From a virus (taxonomy: Duplodnaviria > Heunggongvirae > Uroviricota > Caudoviricetes): a stretch of DNA of 64,000 nt. Below, piece by piece: positions 9,002 to 64,000 of this stretch. Position numbers and translations under genes: made by a program. Under the pieces are notes generated by a model that saw nothing but the letters and a program-made list of their open reading frames with translations, was not told the origin of the DNA and did no database searches. Numbering within the stretch: the stretch's first letter is position 1; each line of letters starts with the position of its first letter. The stretch spans positions 12,099 through 76,098 of the IMG/VR virus record IMGVR_UViG_2693429768_000001. One strand, 5' to 3'.

Positions 9002-10729
9002 TTACTCAGAGTCACCGGCATCAATCGTGTCGCCGCTTATAAAGTTAAGCCCGCCTTTTTTGGCCATTGTCAGCGTTACACGAGTGAAGTAATCAGCGCC
9101 GTTGCGTGGGTGCATATCGTTGATAGCCGAACCCCACAGCGTGGTACGGTTGACCAGCGCCGGAGTGGTCGGATGCTGGAACGGGATGGCCGGGACAGCA
9201 TCACCAGTCACGAAGCCTGCTTTACCCGGATTTTCATCACGGACGTAGCACAGCACATCCATCGAGCTGAACTGAATGTTCTCTGTCGTTAAGTTCTTAC
9301 AAATACCAGCAGGTACTTCGTACACTTTCACGTTACCGAACAGGGTACCGATGTAGTGAACATACGGAGTCTGGATATAGTCTTCGGCTGGCTGGAAGAA
9401 ATCCTTCGGCAACTGTTTGAAGAAAGATGCTGCATCAGCACCAGCAAACATCCCCATCGCACCAGAAGATTTAACGCGCTCAATAATGTCGCGATATACA
9501 GTCTGGAATTTGCCACGAATGATGGTTGCCCATACATCAAAGGACTGGTTAACCGGCAGAGCGATGTCAAAGGTGTCGGTCGCAAGAGTACGCCAGATCA
9601 TGATGCGGAGACGCAACATATCCTGTTCATGGGACAGGTATTCTTTCAGGGTGCGGAACTGTAGGGAACCCAGGTCCAGACCAAATTCACGCTGTGCTTC
9701 ATACGCTGCCTGTACCGTGTGCTCAGCCGCGATAACGAACTGGCTTGGGAACAGGGTGTATTTCTTCATTTCGTGGTTGATCAGCGGGATCAGCTCAGGA
9801 GCGGCTTCAATATTGATTTCCGTCTCAATTGCGATCTCAGTGCCTTTATCCGGCGCTTTGGAGAACGACAGGGCAATCTGACCAATGTTGTAGTTCAGAG
9901 AGCAGGTAACAGTGATTTGCTCACCAGCAGCATTAGTAAACGAGTGAAGTAGGCTGCCGGAACCGTTATCAACAACAGACTTAATACGGTTAACGTAGAT
10001 GTTAGTGCGACCTTTTCGGATTGGTACATTCTGGCCTTCGAAGTCTTCCATCTTGAAGGTTGCGGTTTTGCTGGTGCCATCGGAGCTTGCCACCAGCACA
10101 TAGCGGCGGCGTAACTGGCTGTACACACCGACGGATTGCATGTCCAGAACATCACCAGCAGCATAAGAACCAAAAGAGGAACCTGCCACGTTAAAGACTT
10201 CATAGATGTCGGACTGGTCACGCGTAACCGGAATGAAGGTACACGCATCAGCGGTAGCTGCCCCCAACTGAACAGGCAGGATCATCGCGAGGAATAAAGG
10301 CAGACGCATAACACCGTCAGAAACGCTCATCATCTCTGCTGCGACGGATTCCAGCATCGCTTTATTAGTGGCATCCATGCTATTGCGGGTGGACTCAATC
10401 AGGCAGTTTTCCAGCGTCTGGTGGCAGGAGGCCAGAATTTCCGGACGCGGCATAGATTTATGTGCTGCGGCGTAGTCAGCCAGTGCACTTGCCCACGCTG
10501 TAGCGATTTGAGCGGTGGCATTATCAGAGATACCCGCAAAAACCGGGTCTTTACGTGCAGCTTCAAGGATAGATGCGGCACGCGCGGCATCATCTTTAAT
10601 GAATTGGTTATCAGTACCGAACTGCGCAGTGCTTGCCCAGCCAAGCACAGCTTTAGAGCGTTTTGCGATATCTGCAATACGATTCTGGTATTCGCGTAAG
10701 TTACTCAATTTACTCTTCCTTAAACACAA
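9002..10729 (-). CDS. Large virion structural protein, possibly major head protein (P1 gene 23 position); start uncertain (non-ATG)
   Basis: 575-codon ORF adjacent to parS/parB as gene 23 is in P1. Confidence 0.35.
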   Translation of the reverse strand: MCLRKSKLSNLREYQNRIADIAKRSKAVLGWASTAQFGTDNQFIKDDAARAASILEAARKDPVFAGISDNATAQIATAWASALADYAAAHKSMPRPEILASCHQTLENCLIESTRNSMDATNKAMLESVAAEMMSVSDGVMRLPLFLAMILPVQLGAATADACTFIPVTRDQSDIYEVFNVAGSSFGSYAAGDVLDMQSVGVYSQLRRRYVLVASSDGTSKTATFKMEDFEGQNVPIRKGRTNIYVNRIKSVVDNGSGSLLHSFTNAAGEQITVTCSLNYNIGQIALSFSKAPDKGTEIAIETEINIEAAPELIPLINHEMKKYTLFPSQFVIAAEHTVQAAYEAQREFGLDLGSLQFRTLKEYLSHEQDMLRLRIMIWRTLATDTFDIALPVNQSFDVWATIIRGKFQTVYRDIIERVKSSGAMGMFAGADAASFFKQLPKDFFQPAEDYIQTPYVHYIGTLFGNVKVYEVPAGICKNLTTENIQFSSMDVLCYVRDENPGKAGFVTGDAVPAIPFQHPTTPALVNRTTLWGSAINDMHPRNGADYFTRVTLTMAKKGGLNFISGDTIDAGDSE

Positions 10730-10759
10730 GGCACTTGTGTGAATCCCTTTTCGGAAGAG

Positions 10760-10960
10760 ATTTTATTGAAAGTCACTTGTTGACTTTCTCGCTAAAAGTA
10801 ATTTTTTAAATTTTTTGTGCGGGGGAGGGGGGCAAGTAAAACAGGCGTGAAACCGTGGGAATTTCAGTCTGAAATTTTTCATGAATATCTATATATATCA
10901 TATATTTATACATGAAATAGACGCGGGACATTTTAGACAGGGGAGGGGGCTAAAGCCGCC
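10760..10960. promoter_or_regulatory. parS-like partition site region downstream of parB
   Basis: AT-rich region with atttcag/atttcat heptamer-like boxes and inverted repeats; sequence differs from recalled P1 parS. Confidence 0.4.
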
Positions 10961-10974
10961 TCCCACCAGCGGGA

Positions 10975-11940
10975 TTATTCCCCAGCAGACATTTTCCCAA
11001 TGATTTTTTTTATTGCTTCGTCAATTTCAGTTTGCACTTCAGACGGGAGTCTGGAGAACTCGTAGGCGACAACCCGTTTTTTCGGATCGGACTTCTTTCG
11101 GGCATATTGGCGACGGTCAGAGAAGTCTCGCAGCTTCTCAACCACCACAGATTTAACCGGCGCGGGCTTCAGGCTTTTGCTTTCCGCTTTGAAGATAGCC
11201 AGTATCTTCGCTTTATCCTCTTTCGCGCCCTCAGTCTCTGCAATTCGTTCGCGCACCGTATCAACCAGCTCTTCAATCGGCACGCTTTTAGCGTTAGCAT
11301 CCTCGGCGATCTGGAGCAGTAACTGGTAATCTGGAAGGGCGAGATCGCTGGCTACGGGGAAGACAGCAATCATCTCATCCGGCACCGCGGCAGCCTGGAA
11401 AGCTCGCGTCACTTTAGCCTTTGAAATGTTCTCAGCGCGGGCGATCTCTTCTTTGGTCATGCTCTTACCATACATAACCTCGAAGCGTTTACCCAGTTCG
11501 CGCAGGGTGTGTTCGCGGGCTGTCTGGATATCAATGGCCAGCTGGCGTGCATCCGCCAGGCTGATCTCATCTTTCGTCACCAGAATCTCAAATTTCGTTT
11601 CATTGAAGATACACGCAGCGCGGCGACGTGATCCGTCCAATACCTCAATGCGCTCCCCAACCATACGACCGATAGCCGGGAAGAACTGTTGCAATTTAAT
11701 GGTGCGGGAAATATCGCTTACCGACTCAGGTGTGAGCAGAGACTGATCGCGGCCGTTAACTGCCGGGTCAACGAACGTGCGCGACTCAATCTCACCACTC
11801 AGCACAACGGTAAGCAAAAATTTAGCCTGGCGGCCAGATTTTAGGGTAAAGGTTTTGGTGCCTTCACTGCCTTCAAGCATGCGAGCAAACTCGGAGCTAT
11901 TCTTGCCCAGCACTCGTCCACGGGAAACTATTTTTTTCAT
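10975..11940 (-). CDS. parB: ParB partition protein, P1 family but diverged (321 aa)
   Basis: Conserved blocks shared with P1 ParB (GRDQ..LTP, LDGSRRRA, AKVTRA, YEFSRL) but overall clearly diverged. Confidence 0.85.
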   Translation of the reverse strand: MKKIVSRGRVLGKNSSEFARMLEGSEGTKTFTLKSGRQAKFLLTVVLSGEIESRTFVDPAVNGRDQSLLTPESVSDISRTIKLQQFFPAIGRMVGERIEVLDGSRRRAACIFNETKFEILVTKDEISLADARQLAIDIQTAREHTLRELGKRFEVMYGKSMTKEEIARAENISKAKVTRAFQAAAVPDEMIAVFPVASDLALPDYQLLLQIAEDANAKSVPIEELVDTVRERIAETEGAKEDKAKILAIFKAESKSLKPAPVKSVVVEKLRDFSDRRQYARKKSDPKKRVVAYEFSRLPSEVQTEIDEAIKKIIGKMSAGE

Positions 11941-13148
11941 GCCGCCTCACCCCTAACAAACTCAATTCGATCAAACACAGCCTTAGTGAAACGCTCGGCC
12001 TCGGTTCGTGCCTTCTTCAGCGCCTCTGCACTGCCTGGATACGATTGCGGGTTGGCACTGATTACGGTGTCGAAAGACTCGCCGCATCGCTCAAATCCAT
12101 CCAGACGAGGCAGAGAAGAGTCCAGAATGTTGCTGGCGTAAACCTCACGCGCAAGGCTGTGTGATGTCTCGTGATCGCGCTTGCCGGTCATCTTCGACAT
12201 AAAACCAATGCTGGCGCTTAAACGCGGTTCTACGCCTTCCTCCTCCAGTTGCTCCAGCATTTCTGGCAGACGGGTGAGATATTTCAGTGTTGAGTGGAAG
12301 TCAACCTGGGCTGGTGGGGTAGGGGTAAGCAGCAAATCGCTGGCCGCCAGACCGTTGAGCAGGAACGGATCCAGGTGTGGACCGGTATCAATAAAGATAA
12401 AGTCATAATCATCCGCAACACGATCAATGATATTGCGTCGAAGGATTTCGTACTGATTTTGTCCGGGAAGATGCTCTTCAACCAGCTCTTTCCATTGGCT
12501 GGCAACAAAGCCATCGTCGATAGAGGCTGGAATCACGTCTACGCCAGGAACGATGGTCGGACGAATCACCTCTTTGCGTAGCGTCTCCGCGTCCAGGTCG
12601 TTCAGCATCGCCTGCGCGGCGGTTTCCAGGATGGAACCAATACTGTGAGTATGGTCGAGGAACATTGTGCTGGATGCCTGAGGGTCAAGGTCAATTACCA
12701 GAATGCGCAGATCGTGACGCAGTAAATCCTGATGCACACGCAGAGCGTGCGCCAACGTGACTGTGGAAACCGTTTTGGATACGCCACCCTTCAGGTTTAC
12801 GACAAAAATAACGTAAGGCGATTTGTGAATGTCGCGATATTTTGGGATCTTACGGTGGGCATAGATATCAATGACGTTCTGGATGGTCAGCGCGTACTGT
12901 TCAACGTTACCGACCTGTTTCTTGTTGAACTGGTACCCATCATCTTCCATCTCTTTGATGGCCTGCTCCACAATGCGGCGGCTCAGCTTCGGCAACTTTG
13001 CCACAGCGTTACGAGTGAACGTCTGATAATACTCGGTCTGATTGAACTCTTTGCGCTGATCTTCAATATCCTGACTCATGGCCTTAAGTAATGCGCTTGC
13101 ACGAAGAGCTATGGTGCCGACACCGCCGTAATCGCGTTTCATCATCAT
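11937..13148 (-). CDS. parA: ParA partition ATPase (403 aa)
   Basis: Deviant Walker A KGGVSKT; overlaps parB start; P1 synteny. Confidence 0.9.
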   Translation of the reverse strand: MMMKRDYGGVGTIALRASALLKAMSQDIEDQRKEFNQTEYYQTFTRNAVAKLPKLSRRIVEQAIKEMEDDGYQFNKKQVGNVEQYALTIQNVIDIYAHRKIPKYRDIHKSPYVIFVVNLKGGVSKTVSTVTLAHALRVHQDLLRHDLRILVIDLDPQASSTMFLDHTHSIGSILETAAQAMLNDLDAETLRKEVIRPTIVPGVDVIPASIDDGFVASQWKELVEEHLPGQNQYEILRRNIIDRVADDYDFIFIDTGPHLDPFLLNGLAASDLLLTPTPPAQVDFHSTLKYLTRLPEMLEQLEEEGVEPRLSASIGFMSKMTGKRDHETSHSLAREVYASNILDSSLPRLDGFERCGESFDTVISANPQSYPGSAEALKKARTEAERFTKAVFDRIEFVRGEAA

Positions 13149-13254
13149 CTCCTTATCATTACGTATGAGTGAATTGTACGTTTGATTCTGCTACGTGCAA
13201 CTTATTTTGATTCGTGCGTAAATTATTGCACGTAAAGAAATGGCGATGAGGCTA

Positions 13255-13542
13255 TTAGATGTGTGCTGGAGGGATGATGCAGGACCAGAATGTGCGATAG
13301 AGGGAAGTCGCATTGAATTATGTGTTGTGGAGGGATCGCTGGTATCAAATATGTGCGCTGAAGGGAAAGATAGAAGATTAGATGTGCGCTGGAGGGAAAC
13401 TTGGATGGTTAGATGTGTGCTGGAGGGAATGTCTGGGCAAACTGCGTGGCGCAACCCTCCAGCGCACACCAAAAACAGGAAAATGGGCAGGCATTCCCGG
13501 CAGCGCACATTTTTCAAATGCAGCTGCCCTCCAGCACACACT
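13255..13542. repeat. incA-type iteron array: nine 19-bp RepA-binding repeats (gatgtgtgctggaggga-like), six direct and three inverted
   Basis: Copies read directly at about 13257, 13294, 13320, 13352, 13381, 13412 (+) and 13455, 13496, 13525 (inverted). Confidence 0.8.
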
Positions 13543-14402
13543 TATTCGGGAAGTTTCAGCTTTGGATTGCGAGAATGGACGATTACAAAACTTTCCCGGC
13601 CTTTCTTCTCAATTGAACAGTCGAGATAGCCGATTGTTTTAAGCTGTTCTATCGCTTTCTTAATGATACGGTTTTGCTCGCCAACAGCTGACTGCAAAGC
13701 CAGGCGCTCACGGATTCGCGCGAACGATAGCGGCAACGGGTTCTGCGGAAGGCTTTCGATGAAAGTGTAAATGGCTTGTGCAGCTTCTTTCTTCGGAAGG
13801 GCACGCAAGGCGTGGTGTTGCAACAGAACGCGATAATCAAGCTGGAACAGCTCCCAGAGCTTCGAATCGGCCTCCAGCTCTATCAGATCAAGATCAGCAT
13901 CAAAACGCCCGACCTTCAGAAGACCAGTCTGATAGCCGCCTTTAGCATCTTTTCCGCGCTTAAAAGCGATACCCTTGTTACGCAAGCGTCCAAGTGATTC
14001 ATGAATGGTTAAACGCAGTTTCGCATCCAGACGTTTTGAGGGGAAACCACAGGCTTTAGCGAATTCCTGAAACGATAACTGGATGGTGTTTGAGGACAAG
14101 CCGTATTTGCTGAACGCGTAGATGACACCGATCCACGTTTTGAAATCAGTATCCATATCGAGTCGAGGACCGGTGATTTTAATATCATCGTAACCCTCGG
14201 CTTTAGCTATCTCCAGCTGGGAAAACGCTTTGGTGGCATCAATCTCTTTACTTTCTCCTTTGCTCTTTGATGGCTTCGGAACGAATACCCCCAAGCGCAT
14301 CAATGCTACAGGCTGGACAGTGTTGTTTGAATTAACTGTTAGTTCTTTTGCCTTACTTTCAATGTCTGCGTAAAGAATATCGGAGATAAATGATTGATTC
14401 AT
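13542..14402 (-). CDS. repA: RepA plasmid replication initiator (286 aa)
   Basis: Sequence recognised as P1 RepA (MNQSFISDILYADIESKAKELTV...); flanked by iteron arrays. Confidence 0.9.
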   Translation of the reverse strand: MNQSFISDILYADIESKAKELTVNSNNTVQPVALMRLGVFVPKPSKSKGESKEIDATKAFSQLEIAKAEGYDDIKITGPRLDMDTDFKTWIGVIYAFSKYGLSSNTIQLSFQEFAKACGFPSKRLDAKLRLTIHESLGRLRNKGIAFKRGKDAKGGYQTGLLKVGRFDADLDLIELEADSKLWELFQLDYRVLLQHHALRALPKKEAAQAIYTFIESLPQNPLPLSFARIRERLALQSAVGEQNRIIKKAIEQLKTIGYLDCSIEKKGRESFVIVHSRNPKLKLPE

Positions 14403-14690
14403 ATTACTTTTTCCGAATTGTGTGGATAGTTTTTATAAGTGGTGATAACTACCCAGGCTTTCCCGTCAGCACACATCCTATATCCCGCCAGCACACATTA
14501 GCAACCCGTCAGCACACATTTTTATCCCTCCAGCACACATCGTTTTCCCTCCAGCACACATCGCGATACACTTCTAAGCCAGACGTGGCGCGGCCTGCAA
14601 CGATCAGGGATCTATATGGATCTAATTGGGATCTGTATGGACCTAATTATTGGATCTACCCAGTGGATAATGTGGATAAGTGAAAAACCG
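14403..14690. other. oriR plasmid origin: five incC iterons, GATC heptamer cluster, DnaA boxes
   Basis: Five ccagcacacat(c/t) iterons at about 14458-14562; five GATC sites 14601-14656; tgtggataa-type boxes at 14419-14427 and 14661-14677. Confidence 0.75.
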
Positions 14691-14719
14691 GCCAACATAG
14701 CCGGTTGGAAGGAAGGGTA

Positions 14720-15112
14720 TTATTCTACGCTTTCGATAAGAAGACCATGTTCATAGCATTTAAGCTCATCGCCTTCATACAGGAACTGGTATCCAATACC
14801 ACCATATTCAGGCACATTAGGGAATAACTCATCACTTACCGAAGAACAAATCACACCAATGCAGCGATCAACGCCTTCTCGTTCTTCAGTGCTGAAAAAA
14901 TCCTCTTCGGTAAGAACATGAGTGCATTGCTCATCAGCATAGGTCGGAAATACATGCTCGATGCAATCCGGGTGTTTTAAACCAAGCTGATCGGCAAGCT
15001 CGAAAGCATGACGGTATTGTTCAGATCCTGGCTTGCCAACAGTGATTTGCTCAATTTTGTAGATTGAAGTCGCTTTGTTGATAGTTTGCTTTACTGTTAC
15101 TTTATCAGACAT
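14720..15112 (-). CDS. Hypothetical protein (130 aa)
   Basis: ORF downstream of the spanin-like pair; no motif recognised. Confidence 0.35.
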   Translation of the reverse strand: MSDKVTVKQTINKATSIYKIEQITVGKPGSEQYRHAFELADQLGLKHPDCIEHVFPTYADEQCTHVLTEEDFFSTEEREGVDRCIGVICSSVSDELFPNVPEYGGIGYQFLYEGDELKCYEHGLLIESVE

Positions 15113-15123
15113 AAAAATCCCTT

Positions 15124-15456
15124 TTAGTTACCGCTGATAGCGCGGTTGTAATCATTAACGTTGCGATTCTTCCTGTTAATCCCCATCAGCATCGTTTCTG
15201 TATCAAGGATATAGGCTGGCAGATCATCAAAATATTCACTGCTAAACTCTGGCATCCTGCACATAAATGCACTTTTGGGGGCAGGGTGATTAACCTTTGT
15301 CGGCGTCGGCGTTAAATTCGCTGATCGACTCCCGGAGCAACCGCTGAGTGTCAACAGGAATGCGCTGGCGAACACTACCCGACGCAACCAGTTGTTTCTG
15401 AACTTCAGCTTTTCGTTCCATTTGTCTGTCTGCATACTTCGCTTGTTCTGATTCAT
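15124..15456 (-). CDS. Outer-membrane lipoprotein, o-spanin-like (Rz1-like), partly overlapping the upstream gene in another frame
   Basis: Lipobox LTLSGC, proline-rich mature part (PTPTKVNHPAPKS), one further Cys; SD AGGAAG. Confidence 0.4.
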   Translation of the reverse strand: MNQNKRSMQTDKWNEKLKFRNNWLRRVVFASAFLLTLSGCSGSRSANLTPTPTKVNHPAPKSAFMCRMPEFSSEYFDDLPAYILDTETMLMGINRKNRNVNDYNRAISGN

Positions 15457-15712
15457 TTTTCACTTCCTGGCTGTGAAAATGTTGATCCGCTTTATTCATC
15501 GTCTCAATGGTCTGGTTAAGATCAATGATTGACTTATCGCGCTCCTTAACAGCCTGATCAAGGCTGCCAATTTTTTCCAAGGCTTGCTTTAACTGATAAC
15601 GTTCCCATGCAAACCCAGCACCAACAAGTACGCAAATCAGGACAAGAACACCAGTAACAGCAAGTTTCTCCTTCAAAGACAAAGCTGTTTTTAACGTTGA
15701 AAAAAACGACAT
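15290..15712 (-). CDS. i-spanin-like (Rz-like) protein: N-terminal TM helix plus periplasmic coiled coil (140 aa)
   Basis: TM segment LAVTGVLVLICVLVGAGFAW then charged helical region; strong SD AGGAGG; overlapped by lipoprotein ORF. Confidence 0.45.
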   Translation of the reverse strand: MSFFSTLKTALSLKEKLAVTGVLVLICVLVGAGFAWERYQLKQALEKIGSLDQAVKERDKSIIDLNQTIETMNKADQHFHSQEVKNESEQAKYADRQMERKAEVQKQLVASGSVRQRIPVDTQRLLRESISEFNADADKG

Positions 15713-15751
15713 TTCTTCCTCCTGAAGAAAAATTATCTGTGAAGTCCTTTG

Positions 15752-16597
15752 TTAAAGTGTCGCCTTGTTTAATTCATCAAGAACAGAATCAGGAACCAAA
15801 GCTGCGACTGCGCTGGCGGTGCTGGCCTTATTTGCTGATGCTTCCGCCAGCGCGGTTCCGATAGCATGGTTATAAGCAGTTATGGCTACGCTGGCGCTTT
15901 CCTTCGCTCGTTCATACTGCTGTTGCAATGCTGCTACCGGTACTGTTGTCTGGTCGAAAAAAGCACCAAATTGTTCAGTAGCTTCCTTCAGTGCTTCAAC
16001 TTGTTGTTCTGTCAGTGCTGGTGGGGGAGTCACTGCGCCGCCACCTGAATCAGAGCCTAACGAGCTTCCTGAGCCTGTGTTAAGGGTCTGGTTAATGTCC
16101 CCCATAGCAGCGACTAAACTCGACGCATTAAGCGCATTTACAGCGTCCTCAAGCGATTTCGTTGTAGTCGCGTCACCAATGGCAATAGAGATCGGCAGTT
16201 CTGAAACTTCTCGCTCATTAGCACGACAGTAAACATCCCAACCAATATCGAGTTGAAGGAGCATTGACAGATCAGCATAACCAGCCAACAGGTCCGCGTG
16301 CTGAGTTGCCAGTTCTCCAATGTTCGTTAAGCCGGTTGTGGTTGTTCTGATCGTTGAAACATAGCTGGTAATAGTGTCGGGATAGACAATTGTATCCAGA
16401 ATTAATCCGGTCAATTCTTCTGCAAGCAGTTTTGCTGTGTTAGCACTGTTTCGTGCCGATGTTATGGCACCAGGTGTTTTCATCCCACCGGCGGCGGCCA
16501 ATTTTTTATATGCGGATAACTGGTAGTCTTTTTCCAGCATGATATCTCCTAACTTACCTGAACCAGGCCGTCTCCGGACGCTACGGTAGATCCGCAT
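15752..16597 (-). CDS. Hypothetical protein with Gly/Ser-rich linker; start uncertain
   Basis: ORF only. Confidence 0.3.
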   Translation of the reverse strand: MRIYRSVRRRPGSGKLGDIMLEKDYQLSAYKKLAAAGGMKTPGAITSARNSANTAKLLAEELTGLILDTIVYPDTITSYVSTIRTTTTGLTNIGELATQHADLLAGYADLSMLLQLDIGWDVYCRANEREVSELPISIAIGDATTTKSLEDAVNALNASSLVAAMGDINQTLNTGSGSSLGSDSGGGAVTPPPALTEQQVEALKEATEQFGAFFDQTTVPVAALQQQYERAKESASVAITAYNHAIGTALAEASANKASTASAVAALVPDSVLDELNKATL

Positions 16598-16833
16598 GAA
16601 ACAGGGTCACCAACGCATACGATCCCTTTACCATTGACGGTAAACCATGCCCTGGTTGATATAGCTTGCCCACCGTGCGTACTGTTTCCATCGGTATGCT
16701 GTGCATATTGCTTACCATCAACTAACACTTCGACTCCGTTGACTTTAAGTAGTGGTTCACTCTCTACAGGAGGCCTGGATGGGAATCCTCCGTGCCCCGA
16801 ACAAATGCTGTCTTTTGTTGCAATACTTGCCAC
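16549..16833 (-). CDS. PAAR-like small protein (94 aa)
   Basis: Repeated G-rich motifs with conserved His/Cys (CSGHGG, STHGG, VGDPVSCG) resembling PAAR repeats. Confidence 0.35.
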   Translation of the reverse strand: MASIATKDSICSGHGGFPSRPPVESEPLLKVNGVEVLVDGKQYAQHTDGNSTHGGQAISTRAWFTVNGKGIVCVGDPVSCGSTVASGDGLVQVS

Positions 16834-16914
16834 GCCATCACCAATTATTTGCTCTGATTTTCGTTATTTTAACTTAAGTTATTTGTGGGCTGTATGGCGT
16901 TTACTTATTACAAA

Positions 16915-16931
16915 ATTGCTCTAATAAATAT
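16915..16931 (+). promoter_or_regulatory. C1 operator-like 17-mer (attgctctaataaatat)
   Basis: 16/17 match to operator consensus, immediately upstream of the + strand gene at 16931. Confidence 0.5.
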
Positions 16932-17287
16932 TGTTTTTTGTGTCGTATTTTCGGTACCATTCAGCCATCGCCCTTCAATGGGCATTTGTTTGGAGTCGTC
17001 AGATGCAGATGGAGCTAATAAGCCGCAAAGAGTTCGATAGCCGTGTAACCAGCGGTGAACTCGACAACTTGCAGGCTATCAAGGTGAAAGAAGGCTTTTG
17101 CCTCATTGGGAATCAGAGCGGAACAAATCGCGTTTTTATGCTTCGCCGTACGGATTTGAAGCCATTTGTCTGGAAGAACGAAATTGGTCCCAGCTCATAC
17201 GCTCAAACGAGGGGGTGCCACAACCTGGCCTTTTTCTACAAAGACGAGCTTTCTGTGGTTGATATTCAAGGGTTACAACATGTTTAA
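16931..17287 (+). CDS. Hypothetical protein upstream of hrdC (P1 uhr position)
   Basis: ORF and position only. Confidence 0.3.
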
Positions 17288-56041: not shown

Positions 56042-57346
56042 ATGAGCGAGTATATAGAAATTGCCTATGCAGCGGCTACACATAGGCTGTGCTTTCTTAC
56101 AGGCACTGGATTTTCAAAGGCTGTTTCTGATGATAAAGCCCCAAGTTGGCAATCTTTATTGGAGCAACTGTGCGGTTTATTGAAGGATGGTGACTCACTC
56201 AAAGAGGAATTATTTCCTGATGGAAAAGCAAAAGACCTTAGCCTTGAAGAAGCTGCTCAGGTTATTGCACTAAAATTTATACTTTCGGGGAAAAATATTT
56301 ACCAAGAGATTGAGAAAATCATAGCCTCAATCGAACTTGATCCATCAATTGAATATATTCAAGACTTTTTCAAAGAAAACACATTTAAAGTAATTACGAC
56401 AAATTATGACAAGTTAGCAGAAAAGCTGGCTGGAGAGAATCGAACGTGTACAATCACCCCCGGCCTGCCAATTCCAAAATATAATTGTGAGGTTAAAGTC
56501 TACCATGTTCACGGTTCTATAGACTCCCCATCAGACATGGTTGTTACTAGCGAGGATTATTTCAGATTTATAAATGGTAATTCTTACTTTTCTAATAAAC
56601 TAAGCACAGTTCTACATGAAAACACTATTGTTATCCTTGGCTATTCTCTAAGTGACGCGAACCTAAAGGCTATTATAAATGAATATAAGGTATTTTCACG
56701 GGACAACGTAATGTCCTCCAATATTTTCCTTGTTTCCCGAGGGGAACTATTGCAACCTATTAAAGATTACTATTTTTCCTGCTATGGGGTTAGGGTTATA
56801 GATAAAACAGAGGTATCTGATTTCTTTAGAAAACTTAACGATAAAATTCCAGAAGCAAAAAAAATAAAAGACAAATTGAGGCACTCAATCAAATCGGTAA
56901 TAAAAAACGGAAGAGAGTATAAAATAGAGTTCTTGAAGCTAGAGGATTCTTTTTATCATATCATTTCCTCCATTTCATCATCTGGATATAGCTGGAATAA
57001 TGAAAATGTATTAAATGTTTTTTGTAATATAATAGATAAAAAAATAGAACTTACTAAAAAGCCTGGCGCATGGGAGCAGTATGAACACCTGGCAAAATGG
57101 CTTATTTATTTCGGTAGTTTATTTGAAGTAAAAGGAACCAATTTTGAGAAAAAATACATACATGCGGTTGAACACTCAATGACTTATATGAATAAACCTT
57201 ACGAAACAGGCTACTCATGGCTAGCATATCTAGCCTGGAAAACAAAATGGCCTTCACTGACAGCATCTAACCGCTCTCTTATTAAGAATGAGATGGAAGA
57301 TATCCCGCTACAACAGATTCACGATATTGTATCTAAGTTTATATAG
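56042..57346 (+). CDS. SIR2-like (SIR2_2-type) protein with uncharacterised C-terminal domain, 434 aa; candidate NAD-depleting defence effector
   Basis: Motifs FLTGTGFS, ITTNYD and VYHVHGS in N-terminal half; AT-rich gene with own SD; lies where P1 carries res-mod. Confidence 0.75.
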   Translation: MSEYIEIAYAAATHRLCFLTGTGFSKAVSDDKAPSWQSLLEQLCGLLKDGDSLKEELFPDGKAKDLSLEEAAQVIALKFILSGKNIYQEIEKIIASIELDPSIEYIQDFFKENTFKVITTNYDKLAEKLAGENRTCTITPGLPIPKYNCEVKVYHVHGSIDSPSDMVVTSEDYFRFINGNSYFSNKLSTVLHENTIVILGYSLSDANLKAIINEYKVFSRDNVMSSNIFLVSRGELLQPIKDYYFSCYGVRVIDKTEVSDFFRKLNDKIPEAKKIKDKLRHSIKSVIKNGREYKIEFLKLEDSFYHIISSISSSGYSWNNENVLNVFCNIIDKKIELTKKPGAWEQYEHLAKWLIYFGSLFEVKGTNFEKKYIHAVEHSMTYMNKPYETGYSWLAYLAWKTKWPSLTASNRSLIKNEMEDIPLQQIHDIVSKFI

Positions 57347-58106: not shown

Positions 58107-61100
58107 TTATGCGTATTGTTGGATGACGGCCAGAACGTCCGCCACGTTGTGTTTTGTCTCGATAATCCACCAGTTACCCGGGAAATCGCTGTTCTTCGCC
58201 TTCGCTGGCAGCCAGCGAGCGCCGAATTTCGCCTTGATTGCGTCTTTCGCACGGAAAAGAACGCCTTTCATGCCTGAGGCTTCCTGAAGCCCAAATACCT
58301 CGCCAGCGGCGAATTTTGGTGCGTACATCATCTTCAGGTCGGCGGTGGATACGCGATAATTCAGACCAAGAGACTGAGCTATGCTGGTGGCATCACCCTG
58401 TATTGATGATAACTCTTCTTGTTTCTCGTTTCTGGCGGCAATCTCTTCCTCCGTGATGTTGCCAAGGGCTAGGTTTATCCGATCAGCGTCGGCCTGTTTC
58501 TCTTCATCGGTGCGCCCGGCAAGAACCGTGTTAATTCTCTGCAATATCTCCACATGATTCTTGCGCATGCTGAGCAATTCCGGCGTAACCTCGTTAAGAT
58601 CCACCAGCCCAAGGATGGCAAGGTCGGAAAACATTGATACCAGGTTGTAGGTCATGCGATAGCTGAGTTGACCATAGGCTGATGGCAACTTCACCGCATC
58701 CATTTGATAGGCATCCATAAATTTAGAGCCGTCGTTTACGACATCCGCTATTGCAGGTGTGATTTTCCCTGTGGTGGCGGCCTCCCTGATTGCTGTTACC
58801 CACGATTGAGTCAGCGCGGCGACTGCATGATTCAGATTGGCTTCCCGTTCTGCTTCGATGCGCGCGCTTGCTGCGTCCATTGCCTGCTTGATCTCGGCTT
58901 TATTGCTGTAAATGCCAATGGTGCCAAACTGTGCTGTGGTGATCTCATAATCTGACGCCCGGAACTCATTGGTACCGAAAATGGCATTGGTGACTTCAAG
59001 TTCAGAATCCCCGTTACGAGTAGCCCCCTGGCTTGTTTTTTCCGGCATTCTGGCGATCGCATCCGCTATTTTCTCCTGAATTGCTTCAGGGGATAGCGTA
59101 TCTCCGTATGACGCGATTACATCGCCATAATTGGAGCCAAACAATTCAACCAGGAATGTTTCTGCCGAACGGATCTGGCGGTTATTCCCTTCCGACATCA
59201 TACCAAGCACCCATTTTGCAATTGACGACTTCAGCGCGCCGTCACGGCGATCCGGGTAAACCGCATGCTTCAGTGGGTCCGTATAGGTACCAACAAAATC
59301 AATGCTATAGCCTGACTCTGTAGTCTGAACGCCGTACGAGTCAGTTATTTTGATCATGCCGCGCTGCTGGAAACGGTAGAAATCGTCACAGGAAATGATG
59401 TCGTTAATCCCGGCGATGGAGACGCCACCACTGATTTTCTGCATAACAGCATCTTCATCGGGAGTTACATCCACCTGTTTATCCAGCGTCTTCACATCCC
59501 AGTTACCCGATTTGGTGCCTTTGAAGGTAAAGATGATCTCCACGTCTGCGCGCTGGCTGTCGAAGTCCAGCGACTTAATGCGAACGATATCACCGGCACA
59601 ATCGTAGTATTGGCCTACACGCCATGAGCGATCGCCGATAACAAGGAACTCACTCGCATGGTTAACCAGGTCAGGATCAACATCCAGAATGCCTTTATTT
59701 ATTGCATCCTCCACCAGCGGGCGCAGGCGTTTGATATCCGTCGCGGCCTTCTGAGTACGGTTCAATAATTTCTCATAGCGGGAGATGGCTTGAGAGATAT
59801 TAGCCTTGCGCTGAATGGCGCTTTTCAACGACGCGCGATACTGTGCTAACAACGTACGGTCTGTGTGATGGACGCTACCCCAGCGGGCTTTCCAGTCTGC
59901 GTTATCAGCTGCTTTGGCCATTACCGCCTGTTTGAATTTAGCTACCTCGGCGGTGGTCTTTTCAAGTTCCGCTTTGCTTCGCTCTAATTCAGCGGTAAGT
60001 ACCTCCACATCCTCGCCAGCTGCGTGCTGCGCCTTGATGTAGTTCTGAAGGTCGATAGTAGCCTGTTCTTTCTGGCGAGCGCGTTGCGCGGCTTTCGCCT
60101 TATCCATTTGAACCTGCATCATTGCCAGACGTTCGCCATCATCCTTAGCGGTATACATCTGCATTTCGATCATATCGTTGGCGTCGGCGTTCTCCATTTC
60201 TGACTTATCTGAACGGAGGATATCGGAGATCCAGCCTGCTTTACGCTTCAGCGTCTTCAGTCGGTATTCATCGAAAGAACCCTTGCCGCAGTAGTAGTGA
60301 ACGCGAACGCTTGCACGGTTGGAGCCAACTCGGGCACCGCGACCGTTACGCTGTGCGATACTGGCTGGTGTCCATGGCAACGTCAGATGATGGATGTCAG
60401 TCGTTCCTCGATGCAGGTTGATACCCACCTCTGCCTTTTTGTTGCAGATGATGATCGGAGTCCGGCCCTCCTGGAAGTCGGCTGCAATCTTTTCCAGACC
60501 GCCCAACGACATTTCATTCTGCTGCGCGATATAGGCGTCATACAGAGCCATTTGCTCGTTGTATTTCGCTATCTGTGCATCTGTTGGTTCATCCGGTAAC
60601 TCTTTCGGCGGTTTAACCGCTTTCAGTTTCTTACCGGTTTTACCTGCCTCGGCAACCGTCTGAGCATTCAGGATCCCCACCTTTGAAGGTTCAAGGTTAA
60701 GAGCATTGCAGATAATGCGCTTGAGCTTCTGGTGCTGCGTTTTTTCGTCCGTGAAGATGATTTGCTTACCTTCCGGGAAAAACTCCTTCAGCGTGGCGAT
60801 CAGCTTCACGTATTTGGGCGTAACGGGGTGAGTTACGGTCTGTTCGTCAATGCCAAACTTGGCCAAGCGCTTATTCACTTCCTGCTCGAACGCTTCCGGA
60901 ACCTGCAACTGAATAAACTCGCCCTTATCTATCAGGGAGTATTGCGATTGCTGCGTGATTGAATCATCACTGTCGTCGTCTTCGCTGGTGGCTTGTTTGG
61001 GCAAACTGTCCGCCAGCTGCTGCACCGCATCGGCGTACTCCGGCAGGAAACGATAGGTGATCCGGCGATAGTACAGGTCCATGTCAGTACATACGCGGTC

Positions 61101-63809
61101 CATATCCCTGATTATTGAGAAGATCGGACGGGCTTTCTCGTGCTCAATCACTCCGTCTTCATCGACCGAGGTCGTTACGCCATTGTTGGCTTTGGCCGCC
61201 GCTTCCGCCTGCTGACGCAATTCTTCATACGCCGCCAGTTGTTCTTCAGTAAGTGGTGCATCCTGCTGGTGTTCGTCCAGCTCCGGGATCTCCACGGTAT
61301 CCTTAACGTCTTCCGCCGTTTTAAGCGTTGTCCAGCGATGGAATATGCCGCGCAGCGCATCAAGGTTTTCAAAGCCCACCAGCGCCATTTTTTCTTCAAC
61401 TTCACCGCTGATTTTCTGTACCGTTTCCAGCCTGGTCTTGCCGAAGAATTTAACGAAGTCATCAGGACCGTAGATCCCCATCTTCTGCCAGTATTCCTTC
61501 GGCAGAACATGAGAAAGCATGTTGTATGCATCGATCGGGGTGTTAACGACTGGCGTTGCAGTCAGGAGAACCGGTCCACGCCCACCATTCTTTTTCATCA
61601 GGTACGCGTTTTTGATTGCCATATCTCGCGCCGATTGCGCCACCGCGCTGGTGGGCAGATAGGCCAGCTGTGACGCTTCGCGACCATTTTTATAGCTATT
61701 GCGGTAGTTGTGGCCTTCGTCAGCAATCACGCTGTCGAAGCCCATATCCTCAAAGTACGGATACTTCTCTGCTTTTTCGGTACCGGTATCTGAATACTCC
61801 GACAATACCCGGCGACGCGCCGCCTCTTTGCGATGGGAATCGGAGTCCATTGCGCTGGCCACACGCCCGGCAGCAACGAAGTCATAAAGCATGTCTTGTG
61901 CATGCTCATCTACGGTGTCATCACGTAGCGGAATGCGGGCGTATTGTTCTTTGGTAAACACGACTGCACGGTAGTTTGAGTGCGGGATCGCGTTCATCCG
62001 CGCCGTGATAGTGGCTTCATCTGCCAGCTTAAGGGCATCGCGCATAACGGGAGTGCCATCTGCACCAACGACAGGTTTACCGTTCTCATCGAGCACCGGC
62101 ACCTGGCGAATCTGATCGCCATCCATCAGCACATCAAGACCGACGAACAGGTAGTTACTGAATGCCTCTTCACTCAGAAACTCTTTTGCTTCGTAATACC
62201 AGTTTTCCAGCACTGATTTAGGCACTACATACGCAGTACGGGTGGAACGACCGTTCTCATAGTTGAACGCCTCAAGCGCCAGCGCGGTCGTGGTTTTACC
62301 CAGCCCGGTGCCGAAGCCCAGGATGCCGCGCCCATCTTCGGACAGTCGGCGCACCTCGCTATTCTGGTAATCAAATGGCTGACGCTTACCGCTTAATCCC
62401 TTCAACCCAAGCGGATCACCAGAGTGTTCATACGGAATATTGCTATTGAAAACATCGTTGTATTTGGCAACCAGCTCATCGTAGCGATCGTGCGTCTTGA
62501 TCCACTTATTGAACTGGTCCTCAAGCAGTGCCATCTGCTCGCGGTAGCCGTTCGCCGTCGCGCTATCTTTGCCACCGATACGCGCACCATTGAGATACTT
62601 TTCCAGCTGTGCCGGGAACCCGGTCGCGTTTTCACCTGATTTACGGTCCCACTCGTAGTGGATCTCGCCTGTTTCTTTATCCTTGCGCTGGACGACACCG
62701 TATCGGTGCCCGACGAACAGACCATCACCACCGTGATAGGTGTCAGAAACCATTTCGTCGCCTTCCAGCTGCACTGACTGCACATAGCGCAGATCCGGAT
62801 AGCCGTTTTCCTGCAAAAACTCCAGAATGACGGAGCGGTCGAACCAACGGCTATTGAGCTTAAAGCGGATATTCTCTGCTGGCGTCTTGATGCGCTTCTC
62901 TTCGATCGCTGCCAGCTGATTAAGGACGTTGTTCTTTACTGGACCGTCGGGGAGTGTGGCAAGGAATTCCTGTTTTGGAGCCACTATCTCGTTAATGTCG
63001 CCGCTGGTGGCGCGGGCGAACGGAACAATCCCGCCATACGGTGAAACCGCAATGCCAGGGGTGCTGGCCAATAAATTAAGCAACTCGTCATCACTGGCTG
63101 GCAGTTCGCCGGTAAACGCAAGGCGGAAATCATCGAGCTGGATTGGATCGCGAGTGAGATCACTGTAGAGATAACGCAGGGTGTCCTGATAGCTGGTGGA
63201 GTCATAACTTGCGCTGGAATCATGCGTAACCAGCTTTCCTGTCAGCTCGTCAGAAATAGTGCCATCCAGCTTAATTGCACCACGGAAAGCAAACCAGGCG
63301 CGCGCACCGCTCCCCGATAATTTCGCTATCGGACCGCGACCGGGGTTACCAAAACGGTCAATCTCTGCCTGCAAACGGGATACCAGAGAAAGGCGCTGCT
63401 GTTCGATTTGTTCAGCACTATGCCCGGCGGCCTTCATGTCCTGATATTCAATTAACATCCGGCCAATCATCGCCCCGCGATACAAGCGTTCACGGTATTT
63501 TTCAGGCTGGCTGTTAATCCAGTCCACCAGCTGCACCATATCGTCGCTGATTGATGTGGTGTACTTATCGCGGACATTTGCCATCTGGGTAAATGTCATG
63601 CCGAGACGGCCTTCTGTTGTAGTCAGGTTACGCTGAAGAGCCTCCCAGCTATCCGCGCCATAACTGGCAGCATCGATCTTAAGTTCCTTCCCGGCATCAG
63701 CTTCAATCCAGCGACCACCAGCATATTTTTGCCATACGCCATTAATCAGGCGCATTTCCCCTTCATCAACAACATCTGCGGTCGGTAACGGTTCAGCCAT
63801 ATCGAGCAA
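58107..63809 (-). CDS. darB: DarB-like giant SF2 helicase protein; reading frame is closed about 30 codons upstream of the first start codon, so the N-terminal part expected for DarB is missing
   Basis: Helicase motifs GFGTGLGKTT, VIADEGHNY, LLTATPV, QRNGRGARVGS; 1900-codon ORF; in-frame stop near 63899-63901; no DPPY/NPPY MTase motif in the ORF. Confidence 0.65.
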   Translation of the reverse strand: MLDMAEPLPTADVVDEGEMRLINGVWQKYAGGRWIEADAGKELKIDAASYGADSWEALQRNLTTTEGRLGMTFTQMANVRDKYTTSISDDMVQLVDWINSQPEKYRERLYRGAMIGRMLIEYQDMKAAGHSAEQIEQQRLSLVSRLQAEIDRFGNPGRGPIAKLSGSGARAWFAFRGAIKLDGTISDELTGKLVTHDSSASYDSTSYQDTLRYLYSDLTRDPIQLDDFRLAFTGELPASDDELLNLLASTPGIAVSPYGGIVPFARATSGDINEIVAPKQEFLATLPDGPVKNNVLNQLAAIEEKRIKTPAENIRFKLNSRWFDRSVILEFLQENGYPDLRYVQSVQLEGDEMVSDTYHGGDGLFVGHRYGVVQRKDKETGEIHYEWDRKSGENATGFPAQLEKYLNGARIGGKDSATANGYREQMALLEDQFNKWIKTHDRYDELVAKYNDVFNSNIPYEHSGDPLGLKGLSGKRQPFDYQNSEVRRLSEDGRGILGFGTGLGKTTTALALEAFNYENGRSTRTAYVVPKSVLENWYYEAKEFLSEEAFSNYLFVGLDVLMDGDQIRQVPVLDENGKPVVGADGTPVMRDALKLADEATITARMNAIPHSNYRAVVFTKEQYARIPLRDDTVDEHAQDMLYDFVAAGRVASAMDSDSHRKEAARRRVLSEYSDTGTEKAEKYPYFEDMGFDSVIADEGHNYRNSYKNGREASQLAYLPTSAVAQSARDMAIKNAYLMKKNGGRGPVLLTATPVVNTPIDAYNMLSHVLPKEYWQKMGIYGPDDFVKFFGKTRLETVQKISGEVEEKMALVGFENLDALRGIFHRWTTLKTAEDVKDTVEIPELDEHQQDAPLTEEQLAAYEELRQQAEAAAKANNGVTTSVDEDGVIEHEKARPIFSIIRDMDRVCTDMDLYYRRITYRFLPEYADAVQQLADSLPKQATSEDDDSDDSITQQSQYSLIDKGEFIQLQVPEAFEQEVNKRLAKFGIDEQTVTHPVTPKYVKLIATLKEFFPEGKQIIFTDEKTQHQKLKRIICNALNLEPSKVGILNAQTVAEAGKTGKKLKAVKPPKELPDEPTDAQIAKYNEQMALYDAYIAQQNEMSLGGLEKIAADFQEGRTPIIICNKKAEVGINLHRGTTDIHHLTLPWTPASIAQRNGRGARVGSNRASVRVHYYCGKGSFDEYRLKTLKRKAGWISDILRSDKSEMENADANDMIEMQMYTAKDDGERLAMMQVQMDKAKAAQRARQKEQATIDLQNYIKAQHAAGEDVEVLTAELERSKAELEKTTAEVAKFKQAVMAKAADNADWKARWGSVHHTDRTLLAQYRASLKSAIQRKANISQAISRYEKLLNRTQKAATDIKRLRPLVEDAINKGILDVDPDLVNHASEFLVIGDRSWRVGQYYDCAGDIVRIKSLDFDSQRADVEIIFTFKGTKSGNWDVKTLDKQVDVTPDEDAVMQKISGGVSIAGINDIISCDDFYRFQQRGMIKITDSYGVQTTESGYSIDFVGTYTDPLKHAVYPDRRDGALKSSIAKWVLGMMSEGNNRQIRSAETFLVELFGSNYGDVIASYGDTLSPEAIQEKIADAIARMPEKTSQGATRNGDSELEVTNAIFGTNEFRASDYEITTAQFGTIGIYSNKAEIKQAMDAASARIEAEREANLNHAVAALTQSWVTAIREAATTGKITPAIADVVNDGSKFMDAYQMDAVKLPSAYGQLSYRMTYNLVSMFSDLAILGLVDLNEVTPELLSMRKNHVEILQRINTVLAGRTDEEKQADADRINLALGNITEEEIAARNEKQEELSSIQGDATSIAQSLGLNYRVSTADLKMMYAPKFAAGEVFGLQEASGMKGVLFRAKDAIKAKFGARWLPAKAKNSDFPGNWWIIETKHNVADVLAVIQQYA

Positions 63810-64000
63810 AGACCAGTCGATACGACTTTCGAAACGATGAATCAGCTTCGCTTTAAGAGCCTGGTTATCAATCTGCCCGTCGGCACGAACCTCAATAGGG
63901 GTTTAGGGAGCAATGGAACCAAAAACCAACGTAAGAAAAATATCCGCACATTTCATCGAATAGCTCTGAAGTCCAGCGGTACGGAAACGTACGCTAGCAA

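Follow-up and report, generated by a model that had tools for sequence, protein, structure and literature searches.

Evidence that a Tn3-family transposon has split darB in a P1-like phage-plasmid of Escherichia coli

The darB gene of a P1-like phage-plasmid from E. coli has almost certainly been split at codon 326–327 by a Tn3-family transposon of a 4953-bp type, with duplication of the target CAATA. The stretch of DNA analyzed here (the window) is 64,000 nucleotides long and is collinear with P1 throughout, with ulx and lxc downstream of darB. The source contig, CXZQ01000023.1, ends where the window does, at position 64000. One junction between darB and the transposon lies 103 bases before that end, and the other lies at the end of a second contig of the same assembly.

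What is left of darB in the window? In P1, darB lies on the minus strand at 10469..17236; its product has 2255 aa, with N6_Mtase at aa 90–290 in the Pfam analysis (N6_Mtase/Eco57I matches fall there). These are the approximate size and the N-terminal methyltransferase that the initial annotation had given for this protein. The window holds a 3′ remnant at 58107..63897 (minus strand), which consists of the third base of codon 326, codons 327–2255 and the stop codon (58107–58109), and corresponds to the SNF2/helicase part of the gene. In the protein alignment, 1906 of 1929 residues are identical (99%) to residues 327–2255 of P1 DarB, with zero gaps. DNA homology to P1 10469–16259 ends at window position 63897, and the last P1-matching base is CDS position 978, such that codon 326 is split and the part absent from the window is the first 326 codons. 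Likewise, a megablast search of 62000–64000 against the phage collection gives ~98% identity to darB of P1, P7 and other P1-like phages and stops at 63897.

The open reading frame within this remnant is 1900 aa long (58107..63809, minus strand). As first described, its earliest possible starts lie at 63800–63809; specifically, there is a TTG at 63809–63807 and a first ATG at 63800–63798. These two codons (63798..63809, minus strand) align to internal residues of P1 DarB (LLDM, about 355–358), and they are codons from within darB and not a real start. Direct reading showed no Shine-Dalgarno motif upstream of either the ATG or the TTG, and no promoter-like sites were found in 63500–64000. Upstream of the first start, the darB frame stays open for ~30 codons, up to a TAA at 63903–63905 (minus strand) that sits inside the transposon repeat. 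The closing stop reported by the initial annotation is therefore real, but it had been placed at 63899–63901. The ~30 codons before the start had been said to read as coding sequence, and they do: the match to P1 darB continues at ~98% up to 63897.

P1 DarB, an anti-restriction protein, combines a methyltransferase with a helicase and is packaged in the capsid. The sequence in the window resembles it closely over the retained residues, and differs in that the gene is cut at codon 326/327, with the packaging signal and the methyltransferase domain parted from the helicase by the transposon. Pfam finds SNF2-rel_dom, ResIII and Helicase_C, and no other domain, in the window ORF; the ORF has no N6_Mtase or Eco57I match, in agreement with the earlier observation that it has no methyltransferase motif. 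The first 30 residues of DarB target the protein to the capsid (PMC9024508). The window ORF starts at residue 327 and also lacks this signal.

The break between darB and foreign DNA can be placed exactly to the base. Across it, P1 reads ...CCTCAATA|CGCCCCTGG, with the flank after CAATA starting CGCCCC, whereas the window reads ...CCTCAATA|GGGGTTTAGGG or, in a longer reading, ...CCTCAATA|GGGGTTTAGGGAGC.... The CAATA at 63893..63897 is one copy of the target-site duplication. It is followed by a 38-bp terminal inverted repeat at 63898..63935 (plus strand), GGGGTTTAGGGAGCAATGGAACCAAAAACCAACGTAAG, which has GGGG at its start and TAAG at its end and is the same, base for base, as the tnpA-proximal end in the 4953-bp reference copies described below. 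Tn3-family repeats have GGGG... at the outer end and ...TAAG at the inner end, and we take these 38 bases to be a repeat of that shape. The 38-mer occurs once in the window, as compared with 0 expected occurrences in shuffled sequences, and no second terminal repeat was found within the window.

The final 103 bases (63898–64000) had been noted as not continuing the darB frame, and they are foreign transposon DNA. They are 100% identical to plasmid sequences of Citrobacter, Vibrio, Aeromonas and Klebsiella, including two reference loci (L002 4161–4263 and L003 6001–6103), and a search with these terminal bases identified the matching sequence as the end of a 4953-bp Tn3-family element carried by plasmids. 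Inside the repeat, the last 65 bases (63936..64000, plus strand) are non-coding transposon interior that lies between the repeat and the tnpA stop. In the reference copies the tnpA stop is 132 bases inside the element (tnpA ends at L002 4293), and its position is therefore beyond the contig end and beyond the window. In the window, the tnpA gene would be oriented like the remnant and read towards darB. Thus, the breakpoint that the initial annotation suspected inside darB, at the edge of a mobile element extending past the window, corresponds to a Tn3-family end that abuts codon 326.

The element itself can be described from its copies elsewhere. Two annotated reference records give its length as 4953 bp, and identical elements occur on publicly available plasmids and on chromosomes, for example in Citrobacter braakii (NZ_CP115733.1, 4161–9113) and Vibrio cholerae (NZ_CP080464.1, 5273–10225). 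Both 103-base ends of these copies are 100% identical to those of the darB copy, and the insertion site differs. At the opposite end of the reference copies, the 38-mer is inverted with 1 mismatch, and this arm is also found on the partner contig. The direct repeats on either side of the reference copies are 5 bp long and read TATGT in one plasmid but TAGAT in the second; the insertions are therefore independent. Their TnpA is 997 aa long and has DDE_Tnp_Tn3 (E = 7e-151) and DUF4158 domains in Pfam. A 306-aa serine recombinase has Resolvase and HTH_7 domains, and the element also encodes a PIN_3 toxin and an RHH_6 antitoxin, again by Pfam. The genes are arranged as <tnpR A> T> tnpA>, with the RHH_6 antitoxin and then the PIN_3 toxin between the divergent tnpR and tnpA (loci L002, L003 and L009–L014). 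Judged by its repeats, target duplication and transposase, the element belongs to the Tn3 family. Twelve records in the plasmid collection have at least 80% of the element in one place; it occurs in none of the records of the phage collection, and there is no complete copy among 5,426 complete E. coli genomes.

The same <tnpR A> T> tnpA> layout has been described by Lima-Mendez et al. (2020) for a Tn3 subgroup that includes Tn5563a, Tn1412, Tn5044, Tn5046 and TnXc4/TnXc5 (PMC7157771). Compared by layout and Pfam domains alone, the 4953-bp element shares with this PIN_3/RHH_6 subgroup (the Tn5563a/TnXc5 group) the module order Resolvase, RHH_6, PIN_3, DDE_Tnp_Tn3. It is also like the subgroup in its 38-bp GGGG...TAAG-type repeats and its 5-bp target duplications. 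Tn5563 itself is about 6.3–6.5 kb in length and has merP/merT/merR between tnpA and its end (PMC4785139), whereas the 4953-bp reference copies have no passenger genes, and their tnpA stops 132 bases short of the repeat. Published names include Tn5563 variants and Tn6376, none of which could be tied to the 4953-bp element, and no Tn number is given to it here.

Where is the rest of darB? An exact look-up of the ATG-start product of the remnant (1897 aa) found it on CXZQ01000023.1 (76,098 bp), a contig of E. coli assembly GCA_001286225.1; the TTG-start product (1900 aa) had no match in the same kind of look-up. The remnant gene begins 200 bases from the end of this contig, and the terminal sequence is identical to that of the window. 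Extending the sequence past 64000, which had been proposed, is not possible from this record because the source contig ends there. A simple insertion makes a specific prediction for the other junction: reading on from the 5′ part of darB, one should pass a second CAATA and enter the repeat on the tnpR side. With the N-terminus taken from U2501, the closest plasmid, which has an intact 2255-aa darB, the predicted product is 360 aa long and consists of DarB 1–327 plus the tail GGLGSNGTKNQRKSLPSPFSPFFPCICINIAIT. Exactly this protein exists in the protein collection (CTT10186.1 / WP_053891010.1), the match being obtained for one of the nine N-terminal variants tried. The fragment was not among the cluster representatives in a homologue search with the DarB N-terminus.

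The 360-aa ORF is encoded at the very end of CXZQ01000052.1 (20,005 bp), which also belongs to GCA_001286225.1, and its neighbors are genes for the portal protein, Pro, lysozyme and Ssb, as in P1. It carries DarB 1–327, with both the first 30 residues, which target DarB to the capsid in P1, and the N6 methyltransferase domain. By synteny with P1, the PdarB promoter is presumably located just upstream of this 5′ part of darB. The methyltransferase domain is on another contig and is therefore not lost. Hence, the N-terminal domain is missing from the window and from its contig, as initially claimed, but not from the genome. The end of CXZQ01000052.1 reads ...CAGGGGCG-TATTG-GGGGTTTGGGGAGC... (more fully, ...CAGGGGCG-TATTG-GGGGTTTGGGGAGCAATGG...), which on the strand of the window is the repeat followed by CAATA and then CGCCCCTGG (repeat|CAATA|CGCCCCTGG). 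CAATA is thus present at both ends of the element in GCA_001286225.1, as compared with a single copy in P1. Each of the two contigs has exactly 103 transposon bases, identical to the matching end of the 4953-bp reference, and darB becomes continuous when the element and one CAATA are taken out. The 103-base ends, the duplicated CAATA and the restorable darB together are the hallmark of simple insertion by a Tn3-family element with duplication of 5 bp.

There is a further copy of the element in the same assembly. CXZQ01000034.1 carries a complete 4953-bp copy, with a TnpA identical to that of the Vibrio copy, with non-P1 sequence on both sides and with no target duplication. The element is therefore a repeat in this genome, which most likely explains why assembly stopped at both darB junctions: a short-read assembler would have ended its contigs at the shared sequence. 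The proposed sequence of events is that a transposon with tnpR, the RHH_6 antitoxin, the PIN_3 toxin, tnpA and 38-bp repeats hopped into codon 326–327 of darB, that CAATA would have been duplicated on insertion, and that the darB copy probably arose by replicative transposition from a complete copy resident in the same cell. The second complete copy in the assembly is consistent with replicative transposition, although it is not proof of it. For the darB copy, length and gene content are deduced from the 103 bases known at each end together with the second copy in the genome, and it is likewise presumed that a single transposon copy physically links the two contigs. The element may have a history in this genome that exceeds one hop, given that the copy on CXZQ01000034.1 is without a target duplication.

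One alternative is that the two junctions belong to an unresolved cointegrate, in which the P1-like plasmid and a second replicon form one molecule with a transposon copy at each junction, so that a whole plasmid lies between the halves of darB in place of one 5-kb element. Cointegrates with two such junctions are an established product of Tn3-family transposition, and a cointegrate would yield both junctions and the CAATA duplication just as a simple insertion does. The further copy without target duplication, which is on a plasmid-like contig of the same assembly, would also fit. However, the element has an apparently intact serine resolvase gene, and a resolvase of this kind normally resolves cointegrates quickly. 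Moreover, a cointegrate with darB predicts an arrangement other than the non-P1 flanks seen on both sides of the CXZQ01000034.1 copy. A cointegrate is therefore improbable, at a small fraction of the likelihood given to simple insertion.

Even less probable is that a transposon-mediated deletion, or another rearrangement, removed the 5′ part of darB and left one transposon end adjoining the rest. In its favor, one junction alone is visible within the window, and the initial annotation allowed for a rearrangement as the cause of the breakpoint. However, the 5′ part of darB is joined to the other transposon end, with the CAATA duplicate, in the same assembly. This second junction, on CXZQ01000052.1, led us to reject deletion of the 5′ part, and it points to simple insertion in place of rearrangement.

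The position of the feature at a contig end might suggest an artefact, either a chimeric join or an uninterrupted darB with a frameshift error, or else a naturally shorter homologue that starts here, but these readings, too, have next to no likelihood: on either side, homology stops abruptly and exactly at the outermost base of the inverted repeat, 5 bp are duplicated, both contigs (CXZQ01000023.1 and CXZQ01000052.1) are recorded in two samples, and no indel correction restores the frame, the next 103 bases being 100% transposon. There is no frameshift to correct, and the relatives do not start at this point, since P1 and U2501 have the full 2255-aa gene. The frameshift, the chimeric join and the natural internal start were accordingly rejected on the second junction and the full-length darB of P1 and U2501.

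What are the functional implications of a simple insertion in darB? First, the gene is expected to be functionally knocked out. The helicase remnant would be cut off from PdarB and the start codon, as well as from the methyltransferase domain and the 30 N-terminal residues, and the 3′ remnant appears to lack its own promoter, ribosome-binding site and packaging signal. Transcription reading through from tnpA could reach the remnant, but functional packaged DarB presumably cannot be made. Second, with darB knocked out, virions should therefore lose DarB protection against type I restriction of the EcoK/EcoB type. Plasmid maintenance and lytic growth would probably be otherwise unaffected. Third, the insertion might be more than a simple loss of function: the promoter-proximal 360-aa fragment, which has both the capsid signal and the whole methyltransferase domain, might be carried in the capsid and injected to act as a methyltransferase by itself, amounting to a natural separation-of-function allele, and a toxin-antitoxin transposon on a transducing phage-plasmid could spread from cell to cell in P1 virions and also stabilize the prophage plasmid; we regard these ideas as speculative and rather unlikely.

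For annotation, the 1900-codon ORF should be labelled a fragment of a darB pseudogene, and the final 103 bases the end of a transposon. The apparent loss of the N-terminal domain is an effect of the contig boundary. Beyond annotation, the importance of the case is small. It is a minor example of a toxin-antitoxin Tn3-family transposon entering a P1-like phage-plasmid, and virions could in principle move such elements. The particular insertion in darB is absent from the annotated collections: no record in the phage, plasmid or complete E. coli genome collections spans the darB/transposon junction, and exact-match scans for the junction in viral, genome and metagenome contig collections returned nothing. 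The kind of event, a transposon in an accessory gene of a phage-plasmid, is already known and ordinary. P1 itself has IS1 and IS5; in the annotation of the P1 record, IS5 lies in the res-mod region and has a 4-bp duplication, and IS1 is placed between isaA and isaB. The darB insertion is like these two in that a mobile element has entered a non-essential accessory region of the P1 genome, and unlike them in that it involves a Tn3-family unit transposon bearing a toxin-antitoxin pair, with darB as the target.

Both contigs that flank the transposon insertion in darB, namely the one that ends with the window and its partner carrying the 5′ part of the gene (L008), stop after exactly 103 bases of transposon sequence. 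We take this shared stopping point to be an effect of the assembler, reflecting k-mer overlap, rather than biology. A complete copy of the 4953-bp element is present elsewhere in the source genome, at positions 2174–7126 of contig CXZQ01000034.1 (L014; assembly GCA_001286225.1). This copy has no target duplication, its flanks being TTGTG on one side and AACAC on the other. The tnpA-side flank, AACACGCGCC, is common to three assemblies (L014 and two other records with the element, L010 and L011), and in all three it adjoins Ter and UvrD-helicase genes; on the opposite side, the three assemblies have three different sequences. This pattern may be due to transposon-mediated rearrangement, to recombination between copies, or to assembler joins over the repeat.

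Other DarB fragments are numerous in public assemblies (proteins P0003, P0006, P0010, P0046, P0048 and P0049). Some truncated proteins are N-terminal pieces bearing foreign tails, and others are helicase-only pieces of 1278–1830 aa encoded on long contigs. The abundance of truncated forms suggests that darB is frequently disrupted among P1-like plasmids.

How else does the window differ from P1? First, in place of the EcoP1 type III res/mod genes and IS5 that P1 carries between mat and lxc/ulx, the window segment 55986–57387 encodes a 434-aa SIR2_2-domain protein (56042–57346, + strand); plasmid U2501, the closest plasmid relative, shares this protein at the corresponding position. This looks like a swap of defence cargo at a single locus. 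Second, a 6.7-kb segment absent from P1 (36802–43529) stands in place of P1 84579–85182; Ead/Ea22-like and DUF551 domains occur among its ORFs, several of which have no Pfam match. Third, three more segments diverge from P1 (3127–5355, 10879–13254 and 22057–23144). In the order of these segments, the window has a replaced rlfA/rlfB region, a partition region of a par type other than that of P1, with only ~65% identity to P1 parA, and a replaced tciA region.
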